From NCBI GenBank assembly GCA_048538215.1, contig JBLYPV010000001.1, forward strand, positions 467,850 to 531,849: a stretch of 64,000 nt of DNA, written 5' to 3'. A model generated the notes under the pieces. The model ran no database searches. It was not told the DNA's origin and was given only the letters and a program-made list of their open reading frames with translations. This DNA comes from Patescibacteria group bacterium (GTDB lineage: Bacteria > Patescibacteriota > Minisyncoccia > Phycocordibacterales > GCA-2747955). Below, one piece after another: positions 6,335 through 63,956 of this stretch (its first letter is position 1; the number at the start of each line of letters is the position of its first letter). The translations under genes were made by a program, and so were the position numbers.

Positions 6335-6368
6335 GTAGTATTTAGTGTCACCTGACACTAAATACTAC
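6335..6368. repeat. Family-A palindromic repeat, variant copy (16-bp arms GTAGTATTTAGTGTCA / TGACACTAAATACTAC)
   Basis: Perfect inverted repeat read in the sequence. Shares its left arm with the six other family-A copies. Confidence 0.7.
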
Positions 6369-6379
6369 ATACTGCCAGA

Positions 6380-7918
6380 TTATCGACGGCCGACTTTATA
6401 TTTTTTTCGTATTTGTGCCAATTCGGCCTCTTCAGCTGTGTCTATTGCTTCCTTGCCCTCCCAATGCAATCTTTCTAATTCTTCGTCGGATAGCTTATTT
6501 AGTTGTGTAACATGTTTCACAAGCCAGTCATAATTGTTGTTTTCAGGCATGTGTAACGTTTCACGCATACAAGCATGCAATAACCAGCCTATTCGCTTGC
6601 CAGGTTTCATATGAAACAATTCCATTATATCATCACCCGATATCTTCAAATCTTGCACGGATACGGGGCTTCTCATCGCTTCCTCCATCATTGCTTCATA
6701 TTGACGAAGGCGATAGGGTTGTTCTTTTGGTCTGCCCATTCCTATTCTGTCACAAATACGTAGTTTAATTAAATCCCACACTCGTTCTCCACCACCGACA
6801 TTCCTTATAATCCTACGAACTGCCGATAGGCTAATTTCATCTGGATCCGAAAAAAACATATGCCAACGCACTAGTAATGTTACTCGTGAAACAAGCTCTG
6901 ATGGATAACGAAAACGTTCTAGTATTCTTTTTGTTTTTTTCGCTCCTACTACTTCGTGTCCATAAAAAGTATAATCATTTTTCTCTTTCGACCAACGGCG
7001 TGTCTCTGGCTTTGATATATCATGGAAAAGGGCAGCCAAGCGAATGTCAAGATCCCATTTTTTATCTGCCGCGTGCTCGAGAGTACGAAGTAAGTGTTCA
7101 TATACATCATAAATATGTGATCCATTTTGCTCAATACCCACAGCATCAAGTAATTCGGGGCAAATAACATCAAGAAGCTTGTGTTCTCGTAATAGCTCTA
7201 TCCCATCTCGTGGACTATCACTCATTAAAATTTTAGTAAATTCATCTCGTATACGTTCCCAAGATACATTGTGAAGTTTCATATGAAACTTTTCTACTGC
7301 CTGTGATGTTTCATGTGAAACGCTGAAGCCAAGCGTAGTAGCAAATCGCACAGCTCGAAGTAGGCGCAAGGCATCTTCATTAAATCTATCCTGGGGATCA
7401 CCTACCGTCCGAATTATCTTTGCCTGCAAATCCTGTACACCACCATATAAATCAATAAGCTTTCCACTTGCTGGATTATAGGCAAGTGCATTGATGCTAA
7501 AGTCACGCCGTTCCAAATCTTCATCCAGCGTAGTAGCAAAGCTCACCTCATCTGGTCTGCGACTATCTGAATACTTACCCTCCCTGCGGTAGGGAGTAAT
7601 TTCTACTACTTTTAATTTCTCTAGGGCTTGTATTGTTTCATATGAAACATCTTTTTGTTTAAGCTCTTCGATTTCTAATGCTATTTGGTCATTTACTACT
7701 CCTACTGTCCCATATTGATTTTCATAGAATGTGTGTTCAAATATTTTTTGTATTTCTTCTGGGGTTGCATTTGTAGTAATATCCCAATCTTCGGGAATTC
7801 GATTAAGTAATAAATCGCGAACACAGCCACCTACAATATAAGCTTCGTATCCTGCACTTTGCAATGCTTGAGTACATTCATGAATTTCTTTTGGTACTTC
7901 GAGCTCTATTTTAGTCAT
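6380..7918 (-). CDS. cca: CCA-adding tRNA nucleotidyltransferase / poly(A) polymerase family with HD domain
   Basis: GGCVRDLLL...DWDITT nucleotidyltransferase motif; HD motif LFHDISKP. Start set at MTKIELE (ATG 7918); the track's longer start would translate the TATAAT promoter region. Confidence 0.8.
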   Translation of the reverse strand: MTKIELEVPKEIHECTQALQSAGYEAYIVGGCVRDLLLNRIPEDWDITTNATPEEIQKIFEHTFYENQYGTVGVVNDQIALEIEELKQKDVSYETIQALEKLKVVEITPYRREGKYSDSRRPDEVSFATTLDEDLERRDFSINALAYNPASGKLIDLYGGVQDLQAKIIRTVGDPQDRFNEDALRLLRAVRFATTLGFSVSHETSQAVEKFHMKLHNVSWERIRDEFTKILMSDSPRDGIELLREHKLLDVICPELLDAVGIEQNGSHIYDVYEHLLRTLEHAADKKWDLDIRLAALFHDISKPETRRWSKEKNDYTFYGHEVVGAKKTKRILERFRYPSELVSRVTLLVRWHMFFSDPDEISLSAVRRIIRNVGGGERVWDLIKLRICDRIGMGRPKEQPYRLRQYEAMMEEAMRSPVSVQDLKISGDDIMELFHMKPGKRIGWLLHACMRETLHMPENNNYDWLVKHVTQLNKLSDEELERLHWEGKEAIDTAEEAELAQIRKKYKVGRR

Positions 7919-7981
7919 ATAGTCTATATTATACATTATCAAAGTATTTGCGTTTGATTAATTATTGGTACAATAAGCGAT

Positions 7982-10072
7982 ATGAAAAATAATATCATTA
8001 GCGCTCTAGAGTTTATCGCTATAAGTGCTCTCATTATAGCTCCTCTCAGTTTACTTGCCCTCGATACTAATTTACTATTTCCTTATATCACAAGTAAAGC
8101 TTTTGTCTTTCGAGTGATTGTTGAAATTTTAGTAGCAAGCTGGATTTCACTTGCTCTACTCGTGCCTCGCTACCGTATAAGTTGGCACCACCCACTTGTT
8201 GGCGCCTTTACTCTTTTTATGGGTATTATGCTCGTTGCTAATCTCACCGGACTCGATTGGTACCAAAGCTTTTGGTCGAATGCTGAGCGGATGGATGGCT
8301 ATATTGGGCTCCTCCATTTGTATGGCTTCTTTATTGCTGGGCTCGCAATAATTTGTGCCTCAAAAAAAGAGGCTCCCTTGTGGCAGAATCTCGTTTGGAT
8401 ATTTGCATTCATTATAGGCTTGGGAGCTACCTACACGACTACCTTCGCATCAATTGTGGGTACTTACTCAGCTCTTGTTTTGTTGCTCACCTTTGTGGCT
8501 ATGGGATTTATTTTTGCCCCGAGTTTTCGTAAGCCAAACATTCCAAAATCTCTCCTACACTCCCTTCTCGCTCTCGGAATCTACCTAGGAGTAATTGCTA
8601 TTTTCCAAGACAGCAATCGTGCTGATTCTATTTTGGGCAACCCCATTTACTTAGCTACTTATTCATCTTTTGCTCTCACTATCTGCCTCTACTACGCAAG
8701 CATGATCCAAAGTCACTCACGTCAAAATCTTATTGCTTTTGCAAGCTATTTGCTAGGAGCTGGTTTTTTCTTGCTTATTATATTTGAAACTGCTAGTCGT
8801 GGAGCTATCCTTGGATTAGTCTTTGGTGGCTTGACAGCTGCACTTACTGCAAGCTTTACCGTACGCGACAAAGAAAAACGAGCTTGGCGTTGGGCGGGTA
8901 TTATCTTAGCTGTGTTTATTATATCGAGTATGGGGCTATTCTTTGGCTTTAAAGATAAAATTGCCGAAAGCGACTACCTTCCTTCCTCACACTTGATTAA
9001 ACGAGTTGCACATTTCTCTCTTCAAGATACCACTACCAAACACCGTGTGGCAAATTGGGAACAAGCTATCGAGGGATTCAAGGAGCGCCCTCTCCTTGGC
9101 TGGGGACAAGAGCACTACATGGAAGTATTTTCAAAATATTACCAAGCCGACAAGCTCTATGACGCGGAACAATGGTTTGATAGAACGCACAATATGTTTT
9201 TAGACTGGTTGATATTTGGAGGCATCTTAGGCTTAGGAAGTTTCTTGCTTGTCTTAGGAGTAGCCATCTGGATTATCTGGGCTCGCACGGGTAGCTCTAT
9301 TGATAACCTCAATCGAAGTATTCTCACTGGAATTATAGTAATGTATATGGCACAAAATTTTGTAGCCTTTGACGCCCTCGCGACTAGCATTTGGTTTACA
9401 AGTATCCTTATACTCATTGGGTATTTGTATCAAGCCAAGAGGCAAAATTCATCTACCCACCCAGCAATCATCCGTGACAGTATTGCTCTTTTGGCGGTCG
9501 TAACGGTGTGGCTAGGGATGATCTATTGGATGTATATTTCTGTATATGAAACACGAGCCTACGCACATCAATATATGCAGGTAATGCGTCCCATCTCTAG
9601 TGGAATAAATCTTGGTACTTTGCGCGAGCTTCAATATCCCAGTGTGGCAGAAGCAGTGGAAGCCAATACTTTATTCAAACAAGAATTTCTCGAGCAATTT
9701 ATTAATAGTCCTAAAATTTTCTTGCACCCCGATATCTCAAAAGAAACACGAGAAAAATATGGCGCCCTAGTAGTCAAAGAAGCAGAAGCACAAATTGCTC
9801 GCGAGCCGCACGCAAGCCGGCTACCACTCTTTTACGCTAATTTCTTGATACAAACTGGCAATCCAGATAGAGCTTTACCATATCTTGAACAAGTACATCG
9901 CAATTCACCAGAGAAGATTCAGCCACTTTGGCTATTGGGACAGGTATATGAAAGTAAGGGTGATACCGAGCAAGCTCTCGAATATTTCCAAATGGCTAGC
10001 GAATTAGCTCCAGAGTATGAGGAGGCACAAGAGCGCTATCAAAAAGCTCAAGAGCGAATGAGTGACCAGTAA
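7982..10072 (+). CDS. O-antigen ligase (Wzy_C) family polytopic membrane protein with C-terminal TPR repeats
   Basis: More than 12 TM segments; Wzy_C-like loop RTHNMFLDWLIFGGILGLG; C-terminal TPR-like LEYFQMASELAPEYEEA. Confidence 0.65.
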   Translation: MKNNIISALEFIAISALIIAPLSLLALDTNLLFPYITSKAFVFRVIVEILVASWISLALLVPRYRISWHHPLVGAFTLFMGIMLVANLTGLDWYQSFWSNAERMDGYIGLLHLYGFFIAGLAIICASKKEAPLWQNLVWIFAFIIGLGATYTTTFASIVGTYSALVLLLTFVAMGFIFAPSFRKPNIPKSLLHSLLALGIYLGVIAIFQDSNRADSILGNPIYLATYSSFALTICLYYASMIQSHSRQNLIAFASYLLGAGFFLLIIFETASRGAILGLVFGGLTAALTASFTVRDKEKRAWRWAGIILAVFIISSMGLFFGFKDKIAESDYLPSSHLIKRVAHFSLQDTTTKHRVANWEQAIEGFKERPLLGWGQEHYMEVFSKYYQADKLYDAEQWFDRTHNMFLDWLIFGGILGLGSFLLVLGVAIWIIWARTGSSIDNLNRSILTGIIVMYMAQNFVAFDALATSIWFTSILILIGYLYQAKRQNSSTHPAIIRDSIALLAVVTVWLGMIYWMYISVYETRAYAHQYMQVMRPISSGINLGTLRELQYPSVAEAVEANTLFKQEFLEQFINSPKIFLHPDISKETREKYGALVVKEAEAQIAREPHASRLPLFYANFLIQTGNPDRALPYLEQVHRNSPEKIQPLWLLGQVYESKGDTEQALEYFQMASELAPEYEEAQERYQKAQERMSDQ

Positions 10073-10080
10073 ATAGCCTA

Positions 10081-10117
10081 GGGTAGCATTTATTTACACC
10101 TGACACTAAATACTACC
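10081..10117. repeat. Family-A palindromic repeat (reverse orientation)
   Basis: Reverse complement reads GGTAGTATTTAGTGTCAGGTGTAAATAAATGCTACC. Confidence 0.7.
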
Positions 10118-10186
10118 TTAGGTGTCACTCTCAAATTTAATCTTATCCCTTGAGGGAGGTCGGGAGGTCAGGTATGATAGATAGTA

Positions 10187-10765: not shown

Positions 10766-10803
10766 CTAACACAAGGGTAGTATTTAGTGTCAGGTGCAAA
10801 TAA
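10766..10803. repeat. Family-A palindromic repeat (GGGTAGTATTTAGTGTCAGGTGCAAATAAATACTACCC)
   Basis: 11-14 bp arms with a 14-nt loop; intergenic between the pilin and tRNA-Pro. Confidence 0.7.
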
Positions 10804-10896
10804 ATACTACCCTTATACTTTATGCTGTAGAGAGGGTCGCTTCTAATCTAAAGACATTCTAAAGAAAAATCACCCTAGGGTGATTTTTCTTTCCAG

Positions 10897-11495: not shown

Positions 11496-11828
11496 TTATA
11501 CGCGAGCGGATAATCTCTTCAAGAGCTTGCCCACCTCAAGCTCAAGCTTTTTAAATGAGACGCCCACCCCTTCCTTTTTGAGTACGAGCAAAAGATGAGT
11601 ATCGGGAGGAATGCTATCCCAATGTATACGCAAGGCGTGATATAGTCTCCTTCGCCAGTGATTGCGATCCACTGCTTTCTTTACTATTTTTTTACTCACC
11701 GTTACAGAAGCTTTGGCACTACCCGCTTTCGTATACATAATATGCAAATACTCTCCATGTAGATGATGGGGGCTAGCACAAAGCTTCTCTACTTCTCGTG
11801 AATTCATTCTTTGTTTGGCAGGCAACAT
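11496..11828 (-). CDS. rnpA: Ribonuclease P protein component
   Basis: KKAVDRNHWRRRLYHALR RNR-type motif; directly downstream of rpmH. Confidence 0.75.
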   Translation of the reverse strand: MLPAKQRMNSREVEKLCASPHHLHGEYLHIMYTKAGSAKASVTVSKKIVKKAVDRNHWRRRLYHALRIHWDSIPPDTHLLLVLKKEGVGVSFKKLELEVGKLLKRLSARV

Positions 11829-11907
11829 AGATACAATACTATCCTACTGGAGACAATAAATAAAATACAAGAGCTTGCAAGCTCTTGTATTTTATTTTTG
11901 ATATATA

Positions 11908-12042
11908 TTAAACGCTCAATTTTTTGCGTCCTTTACGACGACGGTCTCTGATTACTCTCCTGCCTCCCACAGTTTTCATACGACTCAAAAAGCCATGGAT
12001 TCGACTTCGTTTTCGTTTTTTGGGCTGATAGGTTTGTGACAT
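11908..12042 (-). CDS. rpmH: 50S ribosomal protein L34
   Basis: [44 protein letters not shown]. The ORF-track start (12117) is an artefactual N-terminal extension. Confidence 0.9.
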
Positions 12043-12107
12043 AGTTGCGGGATTGTACATAAAATATACAAGTATTGCAAGCATTGCTTGACATAAGACC
12101 CTATAGC

Positions 12108-12127
12108 TTATCCACAAGTTATCCAGA
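12108..12127. promoter_or_regulatory. DnaA boxes in the rpmH-dnaA intergenic region: TTATCCACA (perfect) and TTATCCAGA
   Basis: Read in the sequence at 12108-12116 and 12119-12127. Confidence 0.5.
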
Positions 12128-12309
12128 AAAATCCCCCAAGCAGCTATTATTTGGTTTTTCCCATTTTTTACTGCACAATAGCATATATTAGCAAGCTGCT
12201 CTTCTGCAAAATCATCAACTATGACTATCTCAGATTACACTGATGATGAATTAGCGTGATAGGTATTATATATACCAAGCTCTATGAAGAGTAATAACAT
12301 ACAATTACT

Positions 12310-13656
12310 ATGGTACACGACCTTGAAACAATATGGGAAAAAGCTTCTACTAATATCGAGCTCGATATCTCACAAGCAAATTTTAATACTTGGTTCAAGG
12401 ATGCCTTTATATCTAAAATTGAGGACGGTATTGTAACCATCGCTGCACCAAACCAATTCGTCAAAAACTGGTTGGCTGACAAATTTCACAAAACAATCCT
12501 CAAGCATCTTATCAATATCGATAGTACCTTCAGAAACATCGATTATATAATTGAGAAAAAAGAAGATAGAAAAGAACAGCCAAGACGCCAGGCCCCCTCG
12601 GTCAACAATCGTCTTCCTATAGACTCTCTCTATATCAACAAAGATGACAATCTCAACCCTCGTTATACCTTTGATACATTTGTGGTGGGTGATTTCAATG
12701 AGGTGGCCTACAGTGCCGCCCAAGCTATCGTCAAAAAACAAGAGGTCGTCTACAATCCATTTTTTGTCTATGGCTCTACAGGTTTTGGAAAAACTCATCT
12801 TATTCAAGCAGTAGGTAATTACATAAAGAAAACTCAGCCACACAAAAAAGTGTATTATCTCACTACCGATAAATTCCAAATGGAAGTAGTAGAGCAAATA
12901 GGAAAATCAAACAGGGCTAATGATTTTAAAAATAAATATCGTAAGTATGATATTTTAATTATTGATGATATTCAATTCTTAGCAAAAAAAGAAAAGACCC
13001 AAGAAGAGCTCTTCCATCTCTTTAATTACCTCTACGATAACAACAAGCAAATTATCTTCTCCTCAGATAAACACCCTAATCAAATATCTGAAATTGAAGA
13101 TCGTCTTCGCGGACGCTTTAATGCAGGAATGACGATTGATATTCAAGCGCCAGATTATGAATCTCGTATAGAAATCTTACGACAAAAAGCCCTCGCATCT
13201 CAATATGGACTTTCAGAAAAAATTATCGAGTACCTAGCTACTACCATCAATGGTAATATTCGTGAGCTTGAGGGAGTCTTAAACTCAGTCATCCTTAAAT
13301 CAGATGTGAAGGCACGAGAGCTCAATCTCAATGAAGTAAAGGATTTGGTAAAAAATAATGTTAAAAAGAAAAAGGTAATGAAGGTAGAGGAAATAGTCCA
13401 AATTGTTTCCGACTACTATGGAATCGATGAAGAAAATGTGTATAAAAAAATTCGTAAGAAAGAGTTTGTAAAGCCCCGACAACTCATTATGTACATCTTA
13501 AGGGAAGATTTTAAAATTTCTTTTCCAACTATTGGAGAAAAGCTTGGTGGGCGTGATCACACTACAGTTATGCATAGTTGTGAAAAAGTACGTGAAGAAT
13601 TGGAAGATAATCCTCAATTAATATCTGACCTTGATTCTATTCGAAGTATGTTTTAA
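12310..13656 (+). CDS. dnaA: Chromosomal replication initiator DnaA
   Basis: Walker A GSTGFGKTHL, AAA+ sensor motifs, C-terminal DNA-binding domain HTTVMHSCEKV. Confidence 0.95.
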   Translation: MVHDLETIWEKASTNIELDISQANFNTWFKDAFISKIEDGIVTIAAPNQFVKNWLADKFHKTILKHLINIDSTFRNIDYIIEKKEDRKEQPRRQAPSVNNRLPIDSLYINKDDNLNPRYTFDTFVVGDFNEVAYSAAQAIVKKQEVVYNPFFVYGSTGFGKTHLIQAVGNYIKKTQPHKKVYYLTTDKFQMEVVEQIGKSNRANDFKNKYRKYDILIIDDIQFLAKKEKTQEELFHLFNYLYDNNKQIIFSSDKHPNQISEIEDRLRGRFNAGMTIDIQAPDYESRIEILRQKALASQYGLSEKIIEYLATTINGNIRELEGVLNSVILKSDVKARELNLNEVKDLVKNNVKKKKVMKVEEIVQIVSDYYGIDEENVYKKIRKKEFVKPRQLIMYILREDFKISFPTIGEKLGGRDHTTVMHSCEKVREELEDNPQLISDLDSIRSMF

Positions 13657-13690
13657 TTGGTATAAAACACAGCACTATTTTTAAAACAAG

Positions 13691-13718
13691 AATACTCACT
13701 CGTGAGTATTTTTTAAAA
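13691..13718 (+). terminator. Intrinsic terminator after dnaA
   Basis: Hairpin AATACTCAC-TCG-GTGAGTATT followed by TTTTTAAAA. Confidence 0.5.
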
Positions 13719-13749
13719 GAATTACCAATACACACTTCACTAAAAATCC

Positions 13750-14012
13750 CAAGTGGATTACCCCTATAATATCTGGGGAAAAACTATGCATAGATTGAGG
13801 GATAAACCGGTGGATTAATTATATCAATCTCGGTATAAATGATATGATTGTAATTACACCAGAAATACCAGAAATTGCTTCAACAAGCGCAGAGAAAGTT
13901 TTGGAGATGTTAGTATAATTATTCACAAGCAATAAGTAGATATACTCACAAAAAAATGGTTTATCCAGATATTCACAAGAGATAATATTATTAATAAATA
14001 TATAATAAATAT
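13750..14012. other. Candidate oriC: DnaA-box-like 9-mers plus an AT-rich unwinding element, immediately upstream of dnaN
   Basis: TTATTCACA (13919-27), TTATCCAGA (13961-69), ATATTCACA (13969-77), GTGGATTA x2 (13753, 13803); AT-rich tract 13981-14012. Confidence 0.5.
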
Positions 14013-51357: not shown

Positions 51358-51373
51358 TAAAAATATATTTATA

Positions 51374-52604: not shown

Positions 52605-52641
52605 ATGCTAAAAGTTGTCCGGGCTCGACAACTTTTAGCAT
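52605..52641. repeat. Family-B palindromic element (ATGCTAAAAGTTGTCC-GGGCT-CGACAACTTTTAGCAT); it is in a terminator-like position after the operon
   Basis: Read in the sequence. Confidence 0.7.
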
Positions 52642-52863
52642 AAAATGGGGGGAGGTGAAATAGGGGGGATGTATTTAATTAAATTATTTTTTAATTTTTT
52701 AATTTTAGATTGTGTCTACAATTGAAGAAGTGTATGTCTAATCCAAAGAATCTGTATTAAGTGGGAGAGGAGATATGCTTAAGGGGGTATGTATAAAATA
52801 AAGTTCGCCCGGAGGGCGCGCTTATTTATCTAATACTAAATGAAAAATACATTACTAGCTCTA

Positions 52864-55463: not shown

Positions 55464-57665
55464 ATGCGGATTTTACAAAAATATAGCGTTTTACTAGCAA
55501 TACTAATTGCCCTGCCTCTCCTGCTAGCTCATCAAGCGTGGGCACAAGATGCCCAAGCAGAAATTGAAAATACTATTAGCGATATTAGTCTAGAGGCAGA
55601 GGGAGCAATTCTAGTATCAGGAAGCATCGCAAGCTCGAGTAATAGAGGCCCCTTCTATATTCAAGCAGTGCTTTCCGACAAAGATGGTATCACGCGCGAT
55701 AGAATCCAGAGCAGACAAGCTCTCATCCCTGGCTCTTCTTACGAAGAGCGATTCAAGTTTGGTCTCTCGCCTGTTACCAGTGATAGGGTAATACTTATGA
55801 CCGTCACCGAAAGCGGAATTCCCTTTGATATTGATCCTCTACAAATAAAGTGGAGTAGTGATACCCCAGAAGCCCGCACCAATGAGATCCTTGATATTAT
55901 TTCTTGTGAGCATCAAGACGCCTCAGAAGAGCTGGTTTGTAGCTATCGAGGAGAAGTGGATACTCAATCTATCACCGTACGGCTCTATGATGGTCAGCCG
56001 TATACTGCTACACAAATAGCAGAGACTACTTCTTTGATACAAGAAGAATTAGATGGAGAGCTTGTTTTAAGTGCCTTTGCCAAGCCACAAGAAGATGGCT
56101 TGTATATTTATACAATTACTGATGACCGAGGCACCCTACTACACCAAGGCTCTGTGCGTAGAGGAGCAATTCCTGGATTTGAAAAGGAGCAGTCACTTGC
56201 AGATCAAGAAAAGCAGGATCAGCAGAGATTTTTGATGATACTCGGTGCTTTGAGCCTTGCCTTTTTCACTGCAGTGATGATGCTTTCACAATTCTTATTG
56301 AACCCAAAGAAGACTCGTTGGATATGGATTGGGGTGGGAGCTCTTATTCTTGCTTTCTTGAGTGTGTGGTATGTCGCTTATGCAGCCACCTATCAATCTA
56401 CCAATTATCCGCAGTACCAATATGTAGTGGATGTTACTCCTATTGATGCCACCGAGAATGTAGATGGTGATGTAATCGATACGACCTATATCATTTCTTT
56501 TAGTGCCTTTGATACTTATACAGGCAATGCGCCTATGGAGCAAAAGGTAGATATTACCTTCGATGGCTCTACCTACCAAGCATTTATTCGAGATGAATCA
56601 GGAGAAGTGGTGCATTCTCGCCAGGTCACTATCGCCGAAAGTGAAAAGAACACGAGTGCTCTCAAGGTAGTCGATGGCTGTGGAAGCTACTACCAATTCT
56701 CTGAAGCAGGCACTGATGTATACGGGAGCTACGACTGTAGCCCATACCCACTCTTTAATCTTGATGCCACAATCGGCTGTATGAATCCAAATGCTAGTAA
56801 TTATGATCCGAGTGCTATCATTTCAAGCGGGCAATGTAATTTTGGGGGCTGTATCATCCCAAGCGCGCTTAATTACAATCCATCAGCCACTATTGATGAC
56901 GGCTCATGTGTGGTCGAGGGCTGTGTAAATCCAGAGGCTACTAATTATGATCCGAAAGCCACTATTGATGACGGCTCATGCCTCTGTGGCGGTGGCTCTT
57001 GCGAGGATGTATATGGCTGTACCAATCCTGAATCCTCAAACTTCAATGAGCTAGCCACTATTGATGACGGCTCGTGCGATAATTGTATGTGGATACCGAT
57101 TATTCCTGACCCTTCTACCTTCTGTGCTACCGAGATCTATTACCAAACCAATAGCTGTACAAAAGAAGTACGCACCGTACAAGGCAATTTGCAATCTAAG
57201 TGGCTCCCCGATATATCAGCAAATGATATTTGTATTGGTGATTTTGTCACCCAAACCGAGCAGTGCTCACCACTTGATAAGCCCGCCACTCGAGTGCTCG
57301 AGGGTACGAGCAATAGCCCATTCTGTTTTGCTCCCATTACAGAATTTGAAGTATCTACCAATCTCACTAATTGGACTAGTTGTGAAAAGATAGGTCGCAT
57401 CCAAATGACTCATCCGAGCCAAGAGCTTTACTTGCGACCATCAGGTACTGAGCCAGTAGACTCATGGGCAATTTCACAAGAAGCTGGAGAGATTAGTGGC
57501 TCGGTGAGCTCATATAAGGGAGATGTGTGGAAAGCACAATTCAATTATCTTGTTGAGCAAAAGCAATTCAATGATGTGTCGATTACTATGAGGTCGCCTG
57601 CAGGGAATGAGGCCACTCAGCTTTGTAATATTTCTCTCTTGAGCTTTAGTTTTGAGGAGCGCTAG
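55464..57665 (+). CDS. Surface protein with signal peptide, two central TM helices and a C-terminal array of ~33-aa Cys-containing repeats
   Basis: Four tandem repeats of the form GC.NP.A.NY(D/N)P.AT.DDGSC. Confidence 0.55.
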   Translation: MRILQKYSVLLAILIALPLLLAHQAWAQDAQAEIENTISDISLEAEGAILVSGSIASSSNRGPFYIQAVLSDKDGITRDRIQSRQALIPGSSYEERFKFGLSPVTSDRVILMTVTESGIPFDIDPLQIKWSSDTPEARTNEILDIISCEHQDASEELVCSYRGEVDTQSITVRLYDGQPYTATQIAETTSLIQEELDGELVLSAFAKPQEDGLYIYTITDDRGTLLHQGSVRRGAIPGFEKEQSLADQEKQDQQRFLMILGALSLAFFTAVMMLSQFLLNPKKTRWIWIGVGALILAFLSVWYVAYAATYQSTNYPQYQYVVDVTPIDATENVDGDVIDTTYIISFSAFDTYTGNAPMEQKVDITFDGSTYQAFIRDESGEVVHSRQVTIAESEKNTSALKVVDGCGSYYQFSEAGTDVYGSYDCSPYPLFNLDATIGCMNPNASNYDPSAIISSGQCNFGGCIIPSALNYNPSATIDDGSCVVEGCVNPEATNYDPKATIDDGSCLCGGGSCEDVYGCTNPESSNFNELATIDDGSCDNCMWIPIIPDPSTFCATEIYYQTNSCTKEVRTVQGNLQSKWLPDISANDICIGDFVTQTEQCSPLDKPATRVLEGTSNSPFCFAPITEFEVSTNLTNWTSCEKIGRIQMTHPSQELYLRPSGTEPVDSWAISQEAGEISGSVSSYKGDVWKAQFNYLVEQKQFNDVSITMRSPAGNEATQLCNISLLSFSFEER

Positions 57666-58816: not shown

Positions 58817-58873
58817 ATACCAAGCAGGTGTATCTAGGGGCCAATACTGGGGTATGCAGACTATTTATAATTT

Positions 58874-58909
58874 ATGGTAAAAGTTGTCCAGCTGGACAAC
58901 TTTTACCAT
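58874..58909. repeat. Family-B palindromic element, 36-bp perfect (ATGGTAAAAGTTGTCCAGCTGGACAACTTTTACCAT)
   Basis: Perfect palindrome in the divergent promoter region between the femAB-like gene (-) and the 59107 gene (+). Confidence 0.75.
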
Positions 58910-59106
58910 AAATCGTTGAAATAATTTAAGGCTTATTCCTAGAGCGGATGAGCTTGCTATTCTAAGGTTTTAAGTTAAGTGATGTACTTAAAAGCCAAAG
59001 GCCTGAAATATGCATTTTTATATTACAAATCCCACTTTTCTAGTATCTTTGTGTATAAGTAGCGCTCTTGTATGCTTCGTTCGCGTGTATAATTATGAGA
59101 AGTAGT

Positions 59107-61278
59107 ATGTCATTTTTTGCCGCTAATCATCAGGAGCGACCGAAAGCAGGAAATGTCCGAATTATCGGGCTCTTTGCTTGTGCTCTGCTCTTGCCTGTGC
59201 TCGCTTTTGCACAGCAATCGGCTCCTCCGGGCAATAATACCGATCCACCTATCAATACGGGGAGCGCCTCACAGATAAAGGCAGGAGGGCTGAGCCTCGG
59301 CTCTTTAGTAGTAGAAGGGGGTATTATTTTTGAGGGCAATCTGGGGATTGGCACTAGTGGGCCAGCTAGTAGCCCGCTTGAGGTAGTGGGCAGTGCGGTG
59401 AGTATTATTTTTGGTCAGAATGATAATCCAGCTTATCAAGCCCAGCTTATAAGTGGTGATTCTTTCTATGGCTTTCGTGATGGTGATGGGGCTAGCACCT
59501 TGAGCATCTTGCAATCCAATGGCTCTGTGGGTATCGGCACTACTACTCCATTACAAAAATTACACGTAGATGGCAATCTGGCGCTTACTACAGGGCAACA
59601 CATTTATTTTGGAGGCACTAGTGGGCAAGACCTGTATGGTGATGGAGCCACAGCACTTTATTTTGATTCTGCAAGTGCCAACACGGCATATTTTCTTATG
59701 CGTAATTCAGTCAATGCTCCTCTGGGCTATTTGTATGGAGACAACACAGGTAATTTTGGCTTACTTGATGCAGATGGCAATTGGGCTATCCAAAGTGATA
59801 CCGACGCCAACATCAATTTCCGAGTAAACAACGATGAAAAAATGCGCATCCTCTCGAGTGGCAATGTGGGGATTGGGACAGCGAGTCCCGGATTGAAATT
59901 TGATGTATCAAATACATCAAATCAAGCTAATTTGGGAGTTATCCGTACAGATGGCAAATGGGCTACCCTATATGCAGGTTCTGGATTTTCAGGGATAGGG
60001 TTTGATAATTCAGGATATTTCAATATTAGTCCAGAATCTTCTCGTACCGGAACTACGGCAGGCGGAGGGTTGACTATTAATAATCTGGGCTCTGTCGGCA
60101 TCGGCACCACAGCTCCCAGCGCAGGGCTCAAGCTAGATGTGGCAGGCAAGGTAGGAGCTACAGAGTATTGTGATGCAGATGGAGCTAATTGTACCCTTGC
60201 TGCTAGCTTGGGGGGAGGCGATAATTTGGGCAATCACACTGCCACTCAAAATCTTGTACTTGGAAACAATAGTATCACTGGCATCGGAGAGCTTCAATTT
60301 AATAGTGGAAGCAATCATAGTATTACCTCAAATGCTGCTGGGCTTATTTTTGATGGGGGTGACGGTACTCCTGACTTTTTAATCTACGATAATCAATCAT
60401 ACACCAACAATCTTATGCTAGGATATAATGGCACAGCTATTCTCTCTACCTACGACACCAATGAAGACCTGCAGATATCTGCTAATGGTACGGGGATAGT
60501 AGATATCAATGATAGTGTAGATATTTCAGGTGAACTCACCCTCTCTTCTGCTCGAAAGATCAATTTTGGTAGCCAGGAATTGTATGGAGATAATAACACT
60601 CATTTATACTTTGATTCTAATAATGTTAGTATTGCAAGTTTTATGCTCCGTAATTCCAATAATGCAGTTATCGGTTCACTTCATGGGACTAATACTGGTA
60701 TGTTTGGATTATTAAATGGTTATGGCAATTGGATCATTCAATCAAATCTCGATGACAATATCAATTTTCAGGTATCTAATAGTGAAAAAATGCGCATTGA
60801 TTCTGCTGGACAAGTGCAAATTGCTACCACTACCGCTACCTCATCACTCAAGCTTGCGGTAGATGGCAAGGTAGGAGCTACCGAGTATTGTGATGAAAAT
60901 GGAAATTATTGTAGATCACTAGCTGCTGGCTGGCCATTTATCAGCTCACCGATAGCACATCCTGGAAATGGTAATGCTATTGTAGTAAATCATAATTTAC
61001 CCGCTGCCCCCAATGAAGTCCAGGTAGATATAGTAAATGTAGCAGCTAGCGGTGTATTTGACGGTGGATATACCACGGGGGAACGTATTTATAATGTACC
61101 GAGCTTGTCTCAAACAAATGACGGTCTTCACCAGATGGGAATAGTAGTGATGACAGATAATAGTAGTCAGATAAAAATGAGAGTCTCTTCTCTGGGTTTT
61201 TTTATGGTGCAAAAAGATAGCGGTGCTCCATTTAGGTTGGATCCTACTAAGTGGAGCTTTATCGTTAAAGCCCGGTAA
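59107..61278 (+). CDS. Secreted tail-fibre-like repeat protein with internal duplication (GNVGIGT...KLDVAGKVGATEYCD modules)
   Basis: Signal peptide; repeated GN(V/L)GIGT(S/A)xP...L(K/E)(L/V) motifs; two ~250-aa halves each ending KL(D/A)V(A/D)GKVGATEYCD(A/E)(D/N)G. Confidence 0.55.
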   Translation: MSFFAANHQERPKAGNVRIIGLFACALLLPVLAFAQQSAPPGNNTDPPINTGSASQIKAGGLSLGSLVVEGGIIFEGNLGIGTSGPASSPLEVVGSAVSIIFGQNDNPAYQAQLISGDSFYGFRDGDGASTLSILQSNGSVGIGTTTPLQKLHVDGNLALTTGQHIYFGGTSGQDLYGDGATALYFDSASANTAYFLMRNSVNAPLGYLYGDNTGNFGLLDADGNWAIQSDTDANINFRVNNDEKMRILSSGNVGIGTASPGLKFDVSNTSNQANLGVIRTDGKWATLYAGSGFSGIGFDNSGYFNISPESSRTGTTAGGGLTINNLGSVGIGTTAPSAGLKLDVAGKVGATEYCDADGANCTLAASLGGGDNLGNHTATQNLVLGNNSITGIGELQFNSGSNHSITSNAAGLIFDGGDGTPDFLIYDNQSYTNNLMLGYNGTAILSTYDTNEDLQISANGTGIVDINDSVDISGELTLSSARKINFGSQELYGDNNTHLYFDSNNVSIASFMLRNSNNAVIGSLHGTNTGMFGLLNGYGNWIIQSNLDDNINFQVSNSEKMRIDSAGQVQIATTTATSSLKLAVDGKVGATEYCDENGNYCRSLAAGWPFISSPIAHPGNGNAIVVNHNLPAAPNEVQVDIVNVAASGVFDGGYTTGERIYNVPSLSQTNDGLHQMGIVVMTDNSSQIKMRVSSLGFFMVQKDSGAPFRLDPTKWSFIVKAR

Positions 61279-61469
61279 AGTTTGTAGCTTGATGATGGGG
61301 GATGAGGAGGGCGGGGCCAAAGGCCCCGCCCTCTTCCTTTCAATCCTTAAAAATCAAGGATTGAAAGGATTAAGATTTCTAAGCCCTACAAATGGGAGAA
61401 TAATCACCCCCCATTTATACACAAGCCCCCACTTATCAAACACCCAATAATTAGCTACTATAAAGCTAT

Positions 61470-61919
61470 ATGAAACACATACTCAAAAACACCACACTCG
61501 TCTTGGGAGGTATTGCCCTTGCTATAGGCAGTATGGTATTCGCTGCTACCTGGCAAGGCACTGATACTATTCAAAATGGACAAATCATAGAAGCAGATGT
61601 TATTAAAGATAATTTTGATTATTTGTATGAGCTAGTAGGGGAAGTGAAAGCTAGTTGTAGTGGAGGAGGAAGTATTATCCTAGGAAAGAACCCTATTACG
61701 GGTGAAAATATCACTCAATCACTACCAGCTAATGGAGGAGAGCATCTACAAGTAGCAGGAGCAGATGGAACAGTATACCAGTGTCTTGATGGTAGCTGGA
61801 ACGCTATCAATATGGGCTCAGGAGCAACATCTAATAATCCATGTCCTCCTGGACAGCAATTGGTGAATTCTGGTGGTGGGATGATGGTATGTAATCCAGG
61901 CGCTGGAGGCCCACAATAA
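61470..61919 (+). CDS. Small secreted Gly-rich protein
   Basis: Signal peptide LVLGGIALAIGSMVFA; no family recognised. Confidence 0.4.
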   Translation: MKHILKNTTLVLGGIALAIGSMVFAATWQGTDTIQNGQIIEADVIKDNFDYLYELVGEVKASCSGGGSIILGKNPITGENITQSLPANGGEHLQVAGADGTVYQCLDGSWNAINMGSGATSNNPCPPGQQLVNSGGGMMVCNPGAGGPQ

Positions 61920-62025
61920 AAAGGGCAAGCCAAGCCCACAGAGACTCGCAACAAAAGCAAAACAAGCGCTTTGTTTTTGTTTTATTCTAAGAATGTGAGG
62001 ATGTTTGCTTTATTTCGATAGAGAA

Positions 62026-62063
62026 AATGGTAAAAGCTGTCCGAGCTCGGACAGCTTTTACCA
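62026..62063. repeat. Family-B palindromic element, 38-bp perfect (ATGGTAAAAGCTGTCCGAGCTCGGACAGCTTTTACCAT); it is in a terminator-like position
   Basis: Read in the sequence. Confidence 0.75.
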
Positions 62064-62170
62064 TTTTTGTTTTCTCTCTCTTATTCTAATCTAAGTAGCA
62101 GACAAGCTTAAGGAGGCAGGGCTATATATGCTATAATAGGCGCACCATATATTTAATATAAAATAGCAAT

Positions 62171-62701
62171 ATGACAGATTACAATACTTTATACACCCCT
62201 GGAGATATTGATAAAGGAATGATTAATACAGTGATAGAAATCCCCCAAGGGTCGATGCATAAAATAGAATACAATCGAGAGCTGGGCACCTTTGAATTGG
62301 ATCGAGTAGAGCCAGGTATTTTTGCTAAGCCGACTAATTATGGCTTTATTCCCGCCACCCTTGATGATGATGGCGATGAGCTCGATACTCTCGTGGTAGT
62401 AGGAGAGCCACTGCCTCTGGGAGTGGTGGTACGGGCTCGAGTAATAGGTATTCTTGAATTTGAGGATGATGGTGAAATGGATCATAAGGTAATCTGCGTG
62501 CCTGCTGATGATAGACACGAAGGATCTCGTATCCAATCAATAGATGATTTGGGAGAAGTGTGGAAGCAGAAGATAGAGCATCATTTTACCCACTATAAAG
62601 ATCTCAAAAAGCCTGGAAGCACCAAAGTGCTTGGCTTTGGAGATGTGGGCAAAGCCAAAGAGGTGATACAGGAATGTATTGATCGCTGGCAGAATCGCTA
62701 G
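62171..62701 (+). CDS. ppa: Inorganic pyrophosphatase (family I)
   Basis: Conserved EIPQGS...KIEYN...DGDELD(V/T)LV motifs. Confidence 0.9.
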   Translation: MTDYNTLYTPGDIDKGMINTVIEIPQGSMHKIEYNRELGTFELDRVEPGIFAKPTNYGFIPATLDDDGDELDTLVVVGEPLPLGVVVRARVIGILEFEDDGEMDHKVICVPADDRHEGSRIQSIDDLGEVWKQKIEHHFTHYKDLKKPGSTKVLGFGDVGKAKEVIQECIDRWQNR

Positions 62702-62756
62702 GATTATTCTCCCGTGTAGACACGATCCTCACTGCTCGTCTACCAGCCCCCCACTT

Positions 62757-62790
62757 GAGTATTTATTTGCACCTGACACTAAATACTACA
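62757..62790. repeat. Family-A palindromic repeat (reverse orientation, short arms)
   Basis: Reverse complement reads TGTAGTATTTAGTGTCAGGTGCAAATAAATACTC. Confidence 0.65.
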
Positions 62791-62796
62791 TTGCAT

Positions 62797-62838
62797 ACAC
62801 AAGCCCTTAATGAGGGCTTGTGTATTTTTGTGTAGGAT
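62797..62838 (+). terminator. Intrinsic terminator after ppa
   Basis: ACACAAGCCCTTAATGAGGGCTTGTGT followed by ATTTTTGTGT. Confidence 0.55.
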
Positions 62839-62845
62839 AGGAATA

Positions 62846-62930
62846 ATGAGGGGCAGAGGCGAAGGAAAGAATATAGAGAAAAAAAGAGTATAGAGGCGAA
62901 GGAAAGAATATAGAGAAAAAAAGAGTATAG
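62846..62930. repeat. 37-bp tandem direct repeat, ~2.3 copies (GAGGCGAAGGAAAGAATATAGAGAAAAAAAGAGTATA)
   Basis: Read in the sequence. Confidence 0.7.
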
Positions 62931-62944
62931 AGAAAAAAGCTGGA

Positions 62945-62986
62945 GGGGGTAGTATTTAGTGTCAGGTGCAAATAAATACTACCCCC
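62945..62986. repeat. Family-A palindromic repeat with extended 14-bp arms (GGGGGTAGTATTTA...TAAATACTACCCCC)
   Basis: Read in the sequence. Confidence 0.75.
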
Positions 62987-63134
62987 TCAAGTTTTTCGCT
63001 ACGTGCAACGCTTGTTTGGATGCAGAATGAGGGAATTGTGAGGGAAAATAAAAAATATATTACATAGCTCTATATAATATCAATGCCAACTTATTCATTT
63101 ACAGCTGGAGCAAATAAGGCTAGTATAATATAGT

Positions 63135-63719
63135 ATGTTATACAAGGATACAAAACGTATAGGCAAACAGGAGATGGCTCTTTTGGAGGAAATCAATGCT
63201 GGAGATGTGGTCTTTGGATTCCTTACATCTGGTGGATCTACGACGATTGCCTATCGGCAAGCCAAGCGGCGCGCTTATAGACGCAAAGAGGATTGTAGGA
63301 AGCAGGATATCCTTCGGAGACTCAAGCGCCTTGAAGAGAAAAATTTAATTTGTATAGAGCAAGTATCAAGCAAAGAGCGCCGGGCACAACTCACCGAAGA
63401 AGGCCAGGTACAGCTATCCAAACAAAAACTCATAGAGCAATATGCCTCGTATCACAAATCATACAAATGGGATGGGGTATGGCGAATAGTAATGTTTGAT
63501 ATTCCACAAGAACAGCGAAGATATCGCTATGCCTTGCGTCATCTATTACAAGAATGTGGCTTTGTACAAGTACAGCAGAGCGTATATGTTGCTCCCTATC
63601 CTTGTAGGGTGCTCAAAGAGTATATTGCAAACAATCGTATCATTGGTAGCTATGTGCACATTGTCAAAGGAGAGTATGTGGGAGATGATATGCGCTTGCG
63701 GAAGGAATTCGGCATATAA
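63135..63719 (+). CDS. wHTH-like N-terminal domain fused to a Cas2-like (ferredoxin-fold) C-terminal domain; stand-alone, PaaX-like architecture
   Basis: C-terminal WRIVMFDIPQEQRRYRYALRHLLQECGFVQVQQSVYV follows the Cas2 pattern (V.YD(I/V)....RR.K..K.L...G.R.Q.SV(F/Y)). The N-terminal ~110 aa is basic and helix-rich. No cas1 or CRISPR array is nearby. Confidence 0.45.
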   Translation: MLYKDTKRIGKQEMALLEEINAGDVVFGFLTSGGSTTIAYRQAKRRAYRRKEDCRKQDILRRLKRLEEKNLICIEQVSSKERRAQLTEEGQVQLSKQKLIEQYASYHKSYKWDGVWRIVMFDIPQEQRRYRYALRHLLQECGFVQVQQSVYVAPYPCRVLKEYIANNRIIGSYVHIVKGEYVGDDMRLRKEFGI

Positions 63720-63803
63720 AAGTGGTAAGCAGGAGGAAAAAAAGCTCTGTACCGGCTTCAAAATAAGAAAAGAAAGGATGCTTATTTAGCGCTAAAAATG
63801 ATA

Positions 63804-63840
63804 GGGGTAGTATTTAGTGTCAGGTGTAAATAAATACTAC
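63804..63840. repeat. Family-A palindromic repeat
   Basis: GGGGTAGTATTTAGTGTCAGGTGTAAATAAATACTAC. Confidence 0.7.
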
Positions 63841-63915
63841 TTTTGGTTGTTTGTGTGGTGGAGAGATTGGGGAGAGGTGGGAATGTCTTGGTGTGGTGTT
63901 TGGTGTGAGGGAATA

Positions 63916-63956
63916 TGGGGGGGTAGTATTTAGTGTCAGGTGCAAATAAATACTAC
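63916..63956. repeat. Family-A palindromic repeat flanked by G-runs
   Basis: GGGGGGGTAGTATTTAGTGTCAGGTGCAAATAAATACTACC, followed by TTTGGGGGGTGGG. Confidence 0.7.

Follow-up and report, generated by a model that had tools for sequence, protein, structure and literature searches.

Lineage-specific palindromes on both sides of a mini-PaaX gene in Patescibacteria: candidate cognate sites of a compact PaaX-like protein

Introduction

Dimeric binding to palindromic operators is a known property of PaaX and MarR proteins. The repressor PaaX of E. coli (PDB 8a39) is ~305–316 aa long, carries an N-terminal winged helix-turn-helix (wHTH) followed by a Cas2-like domain, and has as its site one imperfect ~15-bp operator upstream. 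The protein described here has the same domain order, and palindromic DNA is likewise found beside its own promoter. However, it comprises only 194 aa, lacks the PaaX C-terminal domain, and is accompanied by near-perfect palindromes of 30–58 bp on both sides of its gene. Palindromes close to small genes are also a feature of REP/RAYT and IS200/IS605 systems, to which we return below.

Results

The window, i.e., the whole 64-kb stretch of DNA analyzed, was searched for a 34-nt near-palindrome with the consensus GTAGTATTTAGTGTCAGGTG[C/T]AAATAAATACTAC. Seven matches to the 34-nt core were obtained with at most three mismatches, against 0.00 expected from 100 shuffles. In line with the first-pass annotation, which had described a dispersed family of intergenic palindromic repeats in seven copies, all of them lie between ORFs or tRNA genes; once the G-run flanks are included, its coordinates are correct to a few bases, apart from 10766, which is 8–11 nt too low. 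GTAGTATTTAGTGTCAGGTG is common to all seven copies. Six are near-identical across the 34 nt and five have the same asymmetric right half, in place of which the copy at 6335 forms a perfect palindrome; the window copies thus arose by copying and not by independent site evolution. The copies and the features around them are the following:

6332–6371, minus strand: copy 1 (core 6335–6368), a perfect 19+2+19 palindrome, TATGTAGTATTTAGTGTCA-CC-TGACACTAAATACTACATA; 12 nt past the stop of a CCA-adding enzyme gene and ~55 nt upstream of the start of an ECF sigma factor gene, both on the minus strand
10077–10122, minus strand: copy 2 (core 10083–10116), two mismatches, stem prolonged by CCTAGG/CCTTAGG flanks; 11 nt past the stop of a Wzy_C/TPR gene and 70 nt upstream of a type IV pilin start codon
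10773–10814, plus strand: copy 3 (core 10777–10810), exact core, 14-nt arms; 93 nt past the pilin stop, in the convergent gap preceding a tRNA-Pro gene
62751–62789, minus strand: copy 4 (core 62756–62789), outer end degenerate; between the pyrophosphatase stop codon (62701) and the pyrophosphatase terminator (62795–62825)
62855–62932, no strand assigned: 37-nt tandem repeat, 2.1 copies at 100% identity, within the ~115-nt purine-rich tract that separates copies 4 and 5
62935–62996, plus strand: copy 5, the upstream palindrome of the cassette (core 62949–62982), exact core, 24-nt arms with an A-run and a T-run; its centre lies 169 nt ahead of the mini-PaaX start codon
63098–63126, plus strand: promoter-like TTTACA-17-TAGTAT, a consensus match only, ending 8 nt before the ATG
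63135–63719, plus strand: mini-PaaX gene, encoding 194 aa with an N-terminal MarR/PaaX-type winged helix and a Cas2-like domain (residues 111–184)
63804–63843, plus strand: copy 6, the downstream palindrome of the cassette (core 63807–63840), one mismatch, GGG/TTT flanks that pair by G-T wobble only; 88 nt past the mini-PaaX stop codon and followed by TTTTGGTTGTTTG
63841–63922, plus strand: spacer of copies 6 and 7, G+T-rich and almost without C
63919–63960, plus strand: copy 7, a second downstream copy (core 63923–63956), exact core, G-run flanks; 40 nt before the window end

The stems are lengthened by flanks whose sequence differs from copy to copy, with the longest arms in copy 5; copies 4 and 5 have the flank CTCAAGT in common. 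The cores of the last four copies are irregularly spaced (159, 824 and 82 nt), the pilin gene is bracketed by copies 2 and 3, and three copies lie 2–6 kb away from dnaA. No additional half-sites were found in the window. An exact 20-mer of the repeat had no match in 185,579 species genomes or in the metagenome collection, and 102 stretches of unrelated genomes matched an arms-only pattern, with no more than one site in any of the 80 listed. The 37-bp tandem repeat and the wHTH-Cas2-like ORF that had been pointed out beforehand are both real.

The 194-aa protein was matched by PaaX_M (PF20803, Pfam) at an E-value of 1e-19, whereas the Cas2 profile match was far weaker (1e-5). The cas2 model TIGR01573 scored 30.7 bits, above its cutoff of 24.5, but covered only model positions 3–47 of 96, and the PaaX model TIGR02277 reached 20.2 bits vs. 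a cutoff of 264.55. An AlphaFold model (pLDDT 83.7), which stops after the Cas2-like domain, had PaaX 8a39 as its best PDB match in Foldseek (probability 1.0), followed by Cas2 proteins and also VapD. Its N-terminal half aligns to the wHTH domains of MarR regulators, and the Cas2-like half shares with Cas2 the beta1 motif, in which an Asp follows a hydrophobic stretch, as well as the QxSV(F/Y) strand. The NCBI product name is Cas2; the product is, however, a mini-PaaX and not a CRISPR Cas2.

Among the homologues, the wHTH half is variable and invariant residues are confined to the Cas2-like half, the pattern expected from shifting DNA specificity. Residues D113, D122, R131, Q147 and S149 are the invariant polar positions of the Cas2-like domain, and the Asp that matches the Cas2 catalytic Asp by alignment is invariant. 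Judged from sequence, the invariant polar residues suggest that this domain may be more than a mere dimerization scaffold. The position of the promoter-like site, 8 nt from the ATG, suggests a putative leaderless-type start. Copy 5 does not overlap the promoter but precedes its putative -35 box by ~115 nt, a placement that speaks against an operator. No paa genes were found near mini-PaaX. The family is essentially restricted to Patescibacteria metagenomes, with a single relative found among 2.9 million viral contigs and, apart from true PaaX, no plasmid-borne ones.

The arrangement of palindromes was then compared between 88 mini-PaaX homologue genes from metagenomes and 373 control genes at the same loci. 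With a shared upstream/downstream sequence score of at least 20 as the criterion, 50 of the 88 homologues were bracketed by two palindrome copies vs. 4 of the 373 controls. The clustering noted around the Cas2-like gene is meaningful, the gene being the conserved partner of the repeat rather than a bystander. The bracketing palindromes, 30–58 bp long, are lineage-specific in sequence; in six closer relatives (35–65% identity), too, the gene lies between two copies of a palindrome particular to its lineage. Two of these loci, L103 and L106, are syntenic with the window cassette and retain the pyrophosphatase gene upstream; in L103 the palindrome, GGTATAATTTAGCAGCA-GG-TGCTGCTAAATTATACC, shows clear homology to that of the window. 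The palindrome-gene-palindrome arrangement is thus repeated around mini-PaaX relatives in many uncultivated Patescibacteria; no description of it was found in print.

Half-site similarity follows protein identity (Mantel r 0.34, reached by 0 of 2000 permutations), half-site identity being 0.79 at 80–90% protein identity compared to a baseline of 0.35. Within a locus the two palindromes have remained similar to each other and thus evolve in concert. Their median centres lie at -38 from the start codon and at +29 past the stop, and in several subfamilies a TATAAT box, 5–10 nt before the ATG, touches the right arm of the upstream palindrome. The centre is almost always C-N4-G, with a loop that is sometimes not self-complementary (GACC, GATA, AGGT). 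Since the downstream palindrome falls in a convergent gap at 32 of 56 loci, it is not an operator for the neighbouring gene; at 17 of 55 loci the upstream palindrome lies between divergent genes and belongs to no 3' UTR. The relatives carry only 2–3 copies per 10–20 kb; extra copies are rare (4 of ~25 long loci) and, where present, tend to bracket another gene, like the pilin gene in the window; they adjoin a nucleotidyltransferase gene in L146 and a GNAT gene with a duplicated promoter-like unit in L152.

Several divergent mini-PaaX paralogues, at most 80% identical, are found on one contig. In non-syntenic pairs (75–89% protein identity), DNA homology extends from about -47 to about +45, the outer palindrome edges, and thus delimits a unit of ~655 bp. 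Between L150 and L177 (92% nucleotide identity), synteny breaks at the cassette ends, which lends only indirect support to the recombination-prone hotspot that the first-pass annotation had seen here.

Lastly, the symmetry of the arms was analyzed in 26 loci whose copies are at least 50% identical, four loci with unrelated palindromes having been dropped. Inter-copy differences comprised 51 positions changed on both arms with complementarity kept and 28 single-arm changes, while only ~4 compensated changes were expected by chance from the per-arm change rate. Such compensated changes indicate hairpin or cruciform pairing, or homogenization by template switching; long palindromes can stay perfect via replication template switching without a dedicated enzyme. 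Arm mismatches (G.T 30, A.C 28, other 57) showed no RNA-type wobble or strand bias, so any pairing takes place at the DNA level. A plain dimer-operator model does not predict this pattern of compensated symmetry.

Discussion

On balance, the seven repeats are probably the cognate DNA sites of mini-PaaX, the gene and its flanking palindromes forming a self-contained cassette across Patescibacteria, as judged by sequence comparison. The repeat, its conserved bracketing, the co-divergence of protein and site, the kept symmetry, the protein fold and the cassette-sized homology are directly supported; from there we infer binding by mini-PaaX, the direction of regulation and looping. The Cas2-like domain would dimerize the protein and place one wHTH on each palindrome arm. 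As the upstream site lies over the core promoter in most relatives, a dimer bound there would silence mini-PaaX itself. The downstream site, occupied by another dimer, might serve to close a ~650 bp loop, or else to block incoming transcription from outside. The extra window copies (those flanking the pilin gene, the one ahead of the ECF sigma factor gene and the one that follows the pyrophosphatase gene) would be duplicates of the same site, which either place those genes under mini-PaaX or are by-products of site duplication; the low copy number is more in line with a small regulon than with a repeat that proliferates.

An alternative that we consider rather unlikely is that the palindromes form extruded DNA hairpins or a cruciform. 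These would be recognized, and perhaps cut, by the wHTH-Cas2-like protein, and the cassette as well as solo palindromes would be moved or copied in this way. Such a system would parallel REP/RAYT or IS200/IS605, with a Cas2 fold in the place of HUH. The excess of paired changes and the lack of wobble or strand bias would be explained by DNA-level pairing, the C-N4-G centre can be taken for a 4-nt loop with a closing C-G pair, and the invariant equivalent of the Cas2 catalytic Asp is in keeping with this alternative. The outer palindrome edges that bound the homologous unit, the synteny breaks between L150 and L177 and the common asymmetry of the copied window repeats also speak for mobility. 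However, homology ending at the palindromes may also mark the end of selective constraint, and template switching could by itself keep the arms symmetrical. Further, near-identical cassettes at different sites were not observed, paralogues on one contig being at most 80% identical, the window cassette shares its synteny with L103 and L106, solo copies are few, and there is neither a HUH motif nor a known transposase domain nor a target-site duplication. The near absence of relatives from viral contigs and plasmids likewise counts against it. Quite improbable, in our view, is the stronger claim that the palindrome-gene-palindrome unit represents a previously unrecognized class of selfish or domesticated element, in which a Cas2-fold protein, guided by its own wHTH, recognizes the DNA hairpins or cruciforms of its flanking palindromes and copies or relocates them. 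If true, the unit would be the functional counterpart of REP/RAYT or IS200/IS605 without a HUH enzyme, and a free-standing Cas2-type domain acting with palindromic repeats outside CRISPR would bear on the recruitment of Cas2 to repeat arrays.

We give little credence to a generic REP/BIME-like or MITE-like element, the label originally proposed, with its enzyme encoded elsewhere, its association with the Cas2-like gene coincidental, and its main role that of a hairpin in 3' UTRs or a hotspot of recombination. The repeat does lie between genes, is palindromic and present in both orientations, and begins with GTAG, the tetranucleotide typical of REPs; in addition, five of the seven window copies lie less than 100 nt downstream of a stop codon, and contigs L103 and L107 end within such palindromes. 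However, throughout the protein family the gene is systematically linked to palindromes whose sequence differs by lineage, and hence this is no coincidence. The wobble bias expected of RNA hairpins is missing, and the upstream copies in divergent gaps lie outside 3' UTRs. The 20-mer had no match in the genomes and metagenomes searched, none of the 80 arms-only stretches listed had more than one site, and the relatives carry few copies per locus. The suggested search for a cognate RAYT (HUH Y1) enzyme gave no Y1_Tnp (PF01797) match, and no other transposase or integrase either, among the ~50 window ORFs (Pfam). Direct target-site duplications were absent, the flanks being complementary, unique to each copy and not direct repeats. 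A MITE reading is not supported, given a bare 34–40-bp palindrome with no TIRs around an internal segment and no target-site duplications.

Even less credible is a family of intrinsic bidirectional terminators or insulators without a dedicated protein, which had been raised as a possibility at the outset. Copy 5 does form a strong hairpin (-36 kcal/mol) with an A-run and a T-run, and copy 6 is followed by TTTTGGTTGTTTG. Nevertheless, the pyrophosphatase has a separate terminator beside copy 4, and T-rich tails, found on two of the seven window copies, follow only 11 of 105 palindromes in the relatives (4 of 53 downstream, 7 of 52 upstream), whose arms have 38% GC. An identical sequence on both sides of one gene, co-diverging with the protein, has no terminator rationale.

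A degenerate or nascent CRISPR array beside a cas2 gene, as the NCBI product name, the above-cutoff TIGR01573 score and near-palindromic 34–36-nt repeats next to the gene might imply, deserves practically no weight in view of the partial Cas2 match, the far better PaaX_M match, the N-terminal wHTH, the PaaX-like structure, copies in both orientations and 50 kb away, the lack of Cas1 among the window ORFs scanned, and the irregular spacing with a gene between copies, from which the first-pass annotation had rightly concluded that this is no CRISPR array.

Returning to mini-PaaX with its proposed cognate sites, its C-terminal domain shares the Cas2 fold with Cas2 and VapD. In contrast to Cas2, it is fused to a wHTH, matches the first half of Cas2 models only, and is found with neither Cas1 nor a repeat-spacer array. 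By analogy only, a few palindromic sites at the protein's own locus are also seen with ParB/parS and KorB/OB-type systems; mini-PaaX differs from ParB in having no ParB/HTH-CTPase domain, and several divergent paralogue cassettes per contig do not fit a single centromere. The window repeat has the REP trait of a short, imperfect intergenic palindrome in both orientations. Unlike REP/RAYT, however, mini-PaaX has no HUH/Y1 domain, its copy number is 2–3 per locus (seven in 64 kb), and its long palindromes are almost perfect, have a 4-nt centre and do not form REPIN-type doublets with fixed short spacing. The IS200/IS605 traits of multiple identical copies per genome and a HUH domain are also absent, same-contig paralogues being at most 80% identical. 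What this locus has in common with both REP/RAYT and IS200/IS605 is a small gene between copies of a short palindrome, further copies of which lie in other parts of the genome, a palindrome particular to each gene lineage, largely vertical inheritance with several divergent paralogues per genome, and intra-palindrome pairing kept by compensatory change.

Results

When the window was searched for the core of the element, GTAGTATTTAGTGTCAGGTGCAAATAAATACTAC, with up to three mismatches allowed, seven matches were found, as against none expected from 100 dinucleotide-preserving shuffles. The seven hairpin copies listed in the first-pass annotation were thus confirmed, one of its coordinates (10766) being about 10 nt off, and all seven are intergenic, as had been claimed, lying between ORFs or tRNA genes. 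The core starts are as follows:

6335, minus strand: copy 1, a perfect palindrome (19+2+19), between the CCA-adding enzyme gene and an ECF sigma factor gene
10083, minus strand: copy 2, on one side of a type IV pilin gene
10777, plus strand: copy 3, on the other side of the pilin gene
62756, minus strand: copy 4, terminal cluster
62949, plus strand: copy 5, terminal cluster
63807, plus strand: copy 6, terminal cluster
63923, plus strand: copy 7, terminal cluster

The left 20 nt are common to all copies and the imperfect right half, TG[C/T]AAATAAATACTAC, to five of the seven. The flanks extend the stem with a different sequence in each copy (ATG/CAT, AAGGG/CCCTT, GCTGGAGGGGG/CCCCCTCAAGT and, with wobble pairing, GGG/TTT). 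A half-site search of the window revealed neither additional copies nor lone half-sites, and Rfam at gathering thresholds detected three tRNAs there and nothing else. Further, the exact 20-mer GTAGTATTTAGTGTCAGGTG had no match in the genome or metagenome contig collections. An arms-only pattern with a variable loop matched 102 stretches of the genome contigs, from unrelated phyla, and none of the 80 listed held more than one site.

The window spans the replication origin of a Patescibacteria genome together with surrounding housekeeping DNA. In the origin region (11496-15128), rnpA, dnaA and dnaN (11.5-15.1 kb) are grouped, and the cumulative GC skew reaches its minimum at 12-14 kb, where a stretch of 34% GC also lies; other genes include those for PolA, PilB, RuvABC-type proteins, PBP, ClpB, trigger factor and MetRS. 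Because three of the seven copies are 2-6 kb away from dnaA, a parS-like site was considered, but it was rejected in view of the several paralogue cassettes per contig in relatives.

The terminal cluster opens with a pyrophosphatase gene, whose terminator comes after copy 4. A purine-rich tract then leads to copy 5, and a promoter-like site precedes the 194-aa mini-PaaX gene (63135-63719, plus strand), which is followed by copy 6, a GT-rich spacer and copy 7. The purine-rich tract (62830-62945, about 115 nt) is strongly strand-skewed and contains the 37-nt tandem repeat, which is real. The 82-nt G+T-rich spacer (63841-63922) is also strongly strand-skewed and nearly devoid of C. An invertible switch formed by the inverted pair 62756/62949 was rejected, as the window encodes no recombinase and no supporting evidence was seen. 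Upstream of the mini-PaaX (63098-63134), pilin (10150-10186) and ECF sigma (6280-6300, minus strand) genes, a -10-like hexamer ends 5-9 nt before the start codon and obvious Shine-Dalgarno spacing is absent, which suggests leaderless transcripts.

The Cas2-like ORF noted at first pass in this cluster also held up: its product, mini-PaaX, matched PF20803, which represents the Cas2-like middle domain of PaaX, with an E value of 1e-19. Its N-terminal half aligned weakly to MarR-type winged helices, Cas2 models matched over their first half only, PADLOC returned only partial Cas2 matches and a PHROGs search gave no significant match. Among PDB structures, the AlphaFold model (70 homologues, pLDDT 83.7) came closest to PaaX, the E. 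coli repressor (8a39); many Cas2 proteins, Rv0674 and VapD ranked next. An identical protein in an NCBI Patescibacteria MAG record is named 'CRISPR-associated endonuclease Cas2' because its partial match to TIGR01573 scores just above the cutoff; this name is most likely a misannotation. The family counts 5,826 cluster representatives (50% identity) at E<=1e-3 and 3,085 at E<=1e-10, nearly all of 180-200 aa. The few source names given are Patescibacteria, Paceibacterota, Moranbacteria and Tagabacteria, and relatives are present in groundwater datasets from Rifle and Hainich. Members are currently annotated 'hypothetical', 'PaaX' or (wrongly) 'Cas2', JGI naming relatives either PaaX or Cas2, and the Cas2 name is probably an error made systematically throughout the family.

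Only six close relatives of mini-PaaX were found among 5.8 billion proteins. The same kind of palindrome pair was present at four of the five metagenome loci examined, the sixth relative (P0004) being outside the sample:

L103 (65% identity, same upstream pyrophosphatase gene): upstream TTGGTATAATTTAGCAGCA-GG-TGCTGCTAAATTATACCAA, downstream GGTATAATTTAGTAGCA-GG-TGCTACTAAATT at the contig end
L106 (57% identity): TTCCTAATTATATGCGCAATTGCGCATAAAATTAGGAA on either side of the gene, with a variant after the pyrophosphatase gene
L104 (48% identity): CGTACCACTTTCGTAACA-CC-TGTTACGAAAGTGGTACG on either side of the gene
L107 (40% identity): its own palindrome pair and a third copy at the contig end
L108 (35% identity): upstream palindrome unlike the downstream one

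A family I inorganic pyrophosphatase gene precedes the closest mini-PaaX genes (window 62171-62701; L103 1871-2401; L106 6-284), its place being taken in L104 (113-433) by a gene with a DHHA2 domain, a domain also found in family II pyrophosphatases. This shared gene order may reflect a functional link between pyrophosphatase and mini-PaaX.

To widen the sample, metagenome contigs were scanned with a profile, which yielded 433 loci, 80 of which were analyzed. For each gene, the 200 nt on its upstream side were compared with the 200 nt on its downstream side, and the best match without gaps was scored. A score of at least 20 was reached by 50 of the 88 homologue genes vs. 4 of the 373 control genes from the same loci, and in 46 loci once duplicate contigs were removed. 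The sequence common to both sides is a palindrome with arms of 12-29 nt, in which 115 of 1,867 arm pairs are mismatched, and its centre is almost always C-N4-G (CTATAG 22, CGACCG 10, CCATGG 9, CGGCCG 9); in the window lineage it is CAGGTG. The median position of the upstream centre is -38 relative to the start codon, a distance uncertain by a few codons as gene starts were chosen by script, and that of the downstream centre is +29 relative to the stop; the two centres are about 610-690 bp apart. The window cassette, with centres at -169 and +104, has the loosest geometry.

Palindrome sequence is lineage-specific, yet the two copies of one locus stay alike. Half-site identity was 0.94 between loci with at least 90% protein identity, 0.79 at 80-90% and about 0.5-0.57 at 50-80%, vs. 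a baseline of 0.35 below 50% (Mantel r 0.34, reached in none of 2000 permutations). This is evolution of the two sites in concert with one protein, and it is the main argument for recognition of the palindromes by that protein. Differences between the copies of one locus fell mostly on both arms with complementarity kept (89 compensated vs. 36 single-arm changes over 30 loci, or 51 vs. 28 after removal of four loci with unrelated best palindromes), while about 4 compensated changes would be expected by chance as estimated from the per-arm change rate. An RNA-level function was tested through wobble and strand bias of the stem mismatches. These comprised 30 G.T, 28 A.C and 57 other pairs without a sense-strand preference for G.T, which argues against an RNA hairpin and for symmetry at the DNA level.

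The window cassette (the gene with one palindrome on each side) is syntenic with those of L103 and L106. Many pairs at 75-89% protein identity share no neighbour gene within 3 kb; in these, the homologous DNA begins at about -47 relative to the start codon and ends at about +42 to +47 relative to the stop, positions that coincide with the outer palindrome edges. In 32 of 56 loci the next gene downstream is convergent, and the palindrome on that side was therefore rejected as an operator of that neighbour. The cassette is self-contained and stands in either orientation relative to its neighbours. Several contigs carry two or three divergent paralogues, each with its own palindrome; no near-identical cassettes were seen at different places, and the family hardly occurs in viral contigs (one relative) or on plasmids (Rhodococcus PaaX only). 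Two loci from the same sample, L150 (6527-10443) and L177 (491-3820), have a 2.5-kb block and the cassette in common at 92% DNA identity and lose homology exactly at the outer palindrome on both sides. This break is either a rearrangement at the palindromes or an assembly mis-join, and the argument is weaker for the possible mis-joins of metagenome contigs at repeats.

Copies away from the mini-PaaX gene are rare in relatives (4 of about 25 long loci), and the window lineage has more of them than any other locus examined. The near identity of the window extras, including the shared asymmetric half, shows an origin by copying. The extra copies in relatives are:

L111: after the ClpB gene
L185: between a DedA-type gene and ComEC
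L146: after the PilB gene, so that a nucleotidyltransferase gene is bracketed too
L152, 2295-2389 and 2868-2962: 95-nt direct repeats, 91% identical, on either side of a GNAT acetyltransferase gene

Both L152 repeats contain the promoter-like TTGAAT-17-TAGAAT, along with a sequence that differs by one mismatch from the palindrome of that contig's mini-PaaX gene, which lies 7 kb away with the palindrome upstream of it.

Other repeats were also recorded in the window:

45965-46003, 52604-52642, 58870-58913, 62024-62067: family B palindromes ATGGTAAAAGTTGTCC...GGACAACTTTTACCAT, up to 44 bp perfect, copies differing by symmetric changes on both arms
21245-21290: single 46-bp perfect palindrome AGAGACTACTGACTAGTGCACGG/CCGTGCACTAGTCAGTAGTCTCT, centre CGGCCG, just past the PilB/T2SSE ATPase gene and ahead of ruvB
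31092-31375: 108-nt unit in 2.6 tandem copies (two 100% identical), starting in the 3' part of tRNA-Lys (31050-31123, minus strand)
6597-6622, 7269-7294, 7628-7653: three GTTTCATATGAAAC-centred 26-nt repeats within the CCA-adding enzyme coding region (6380-7942, minus strand)
56775-57077: four 63-nt in-frame repeats (GCxNPxAxNYDPxAxIDDGSC-like) in a 733-aa ORF (55464-57665), forming a repeated Cys-containing module of what is probably a surface protein

Family B brackets two clusters of genes for unknown or surface-type proteins (46063-52564 and 59068-61919) and has no cognate mini-PaaX gene in the window; its palindromes may thus belong to a paralogue whose gene lies elsewhere. The palindrome at 21245-21290 resembles the cassette palindromes of relatives in style, and the extra cognate copy of L146 likewise follows a PilB gene. 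The tRNA-Lys repeat may be an integration remnant or a partial tRNA duplication.

Discussion

All functional statements made here are drawn from sequence. With moderate confidence, we read the element as the cognate site bound by the adjacent mini-PaaX, with wHTH domains that would contact the palindrome arms and a Cas2-like domain that would mediate dimerization, as in PaaX. Since the upstream site lies over the core promoter in most relatives, binding would be expected to cause autorepression, the sign of regulation being predicted; the second site might serve in looping or as a roadblock. Extra sites would bring a few more genes under control, here the pilin and ECF sigma genes.

The main rival, a hairpin-recognizing REP/RAYT-like or IS200-like system built on the Cas2 fold, seems rather unlikely. 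It would also fit the symmetric covariation of the arms, the loop-like C-N4-G centre, the copied sites, the homology in cassette-sized blocks and the acidic residues that are invariant in the Cas2-like domain. The operator and hairpin-system readings are compatible, as a regulator whose sites spread by duplication would have both sets of features. That the palindrome-gene-palindrome module is a categorically new Cas2-fold hairpin-element system is doubtful.

The REP/MITE label proposed at first pass is contradicted: a generic element of that kind is very improbable, since no transposase or HUH/Y1 enzyme (nor any integrase) occurs among about 50 window ORFs scanned with Pfam and the palindromes pair systematically with mini-PaaX genes across the family (50/88 vs. 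4/373). A terminator family, named at first pass as the case against that label, is hardly credible, as T-rich tails accompany only 11 of 105 palindromes and the arms are AT-rich. With partial Cas2 matches and no Cas1 among those window ORFs, a CRISPR origin can be dismissed.

We regard the module as a predicted regulator-operator pair whose conserved bracketing architecture is unusual: sites on both sides of the gene, long palindromes kept perfect by symmetric change and cassette-like boundaries. Together, these features may stem from DNA looping or from a copying mechanism based on hairpins. In Patescibacteria (CPR), genomes are tiny, recognizable regulators are few and experimental genetics is almost non-existent. 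Here, a large protein family would be tied, member by member, to DNA sites predictable from sequence, providing a testable regulatory code for uncultivated bacteria, with pilin, sigma-factor and competence-related genes among the neighbours. A recurrent Cas2 misannotation would also be corrected.

No description of the module was found in the searchable literature, which covers few subscription journals, and it is provisionally considered undescribed. Like REP/RAYT systems, it has palindromes of its own around the gene, pairs specific to each lineage, and paralogues alongside vertical inheritance; unlike them, mini-PaaX is not an HUH enzyme, their defining feature, and copy number is low as far as visible in the window and the loci of relatives. 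The PaaX/MarR repressors are structurally closest to mini-PaaX and probably work in the same manner, whereas PaaX itself is set apart by equivalog tests: mini-PaaX lacks the C-terminal domain, scores 20 bits against a cutoff of 264 and has no paa context.
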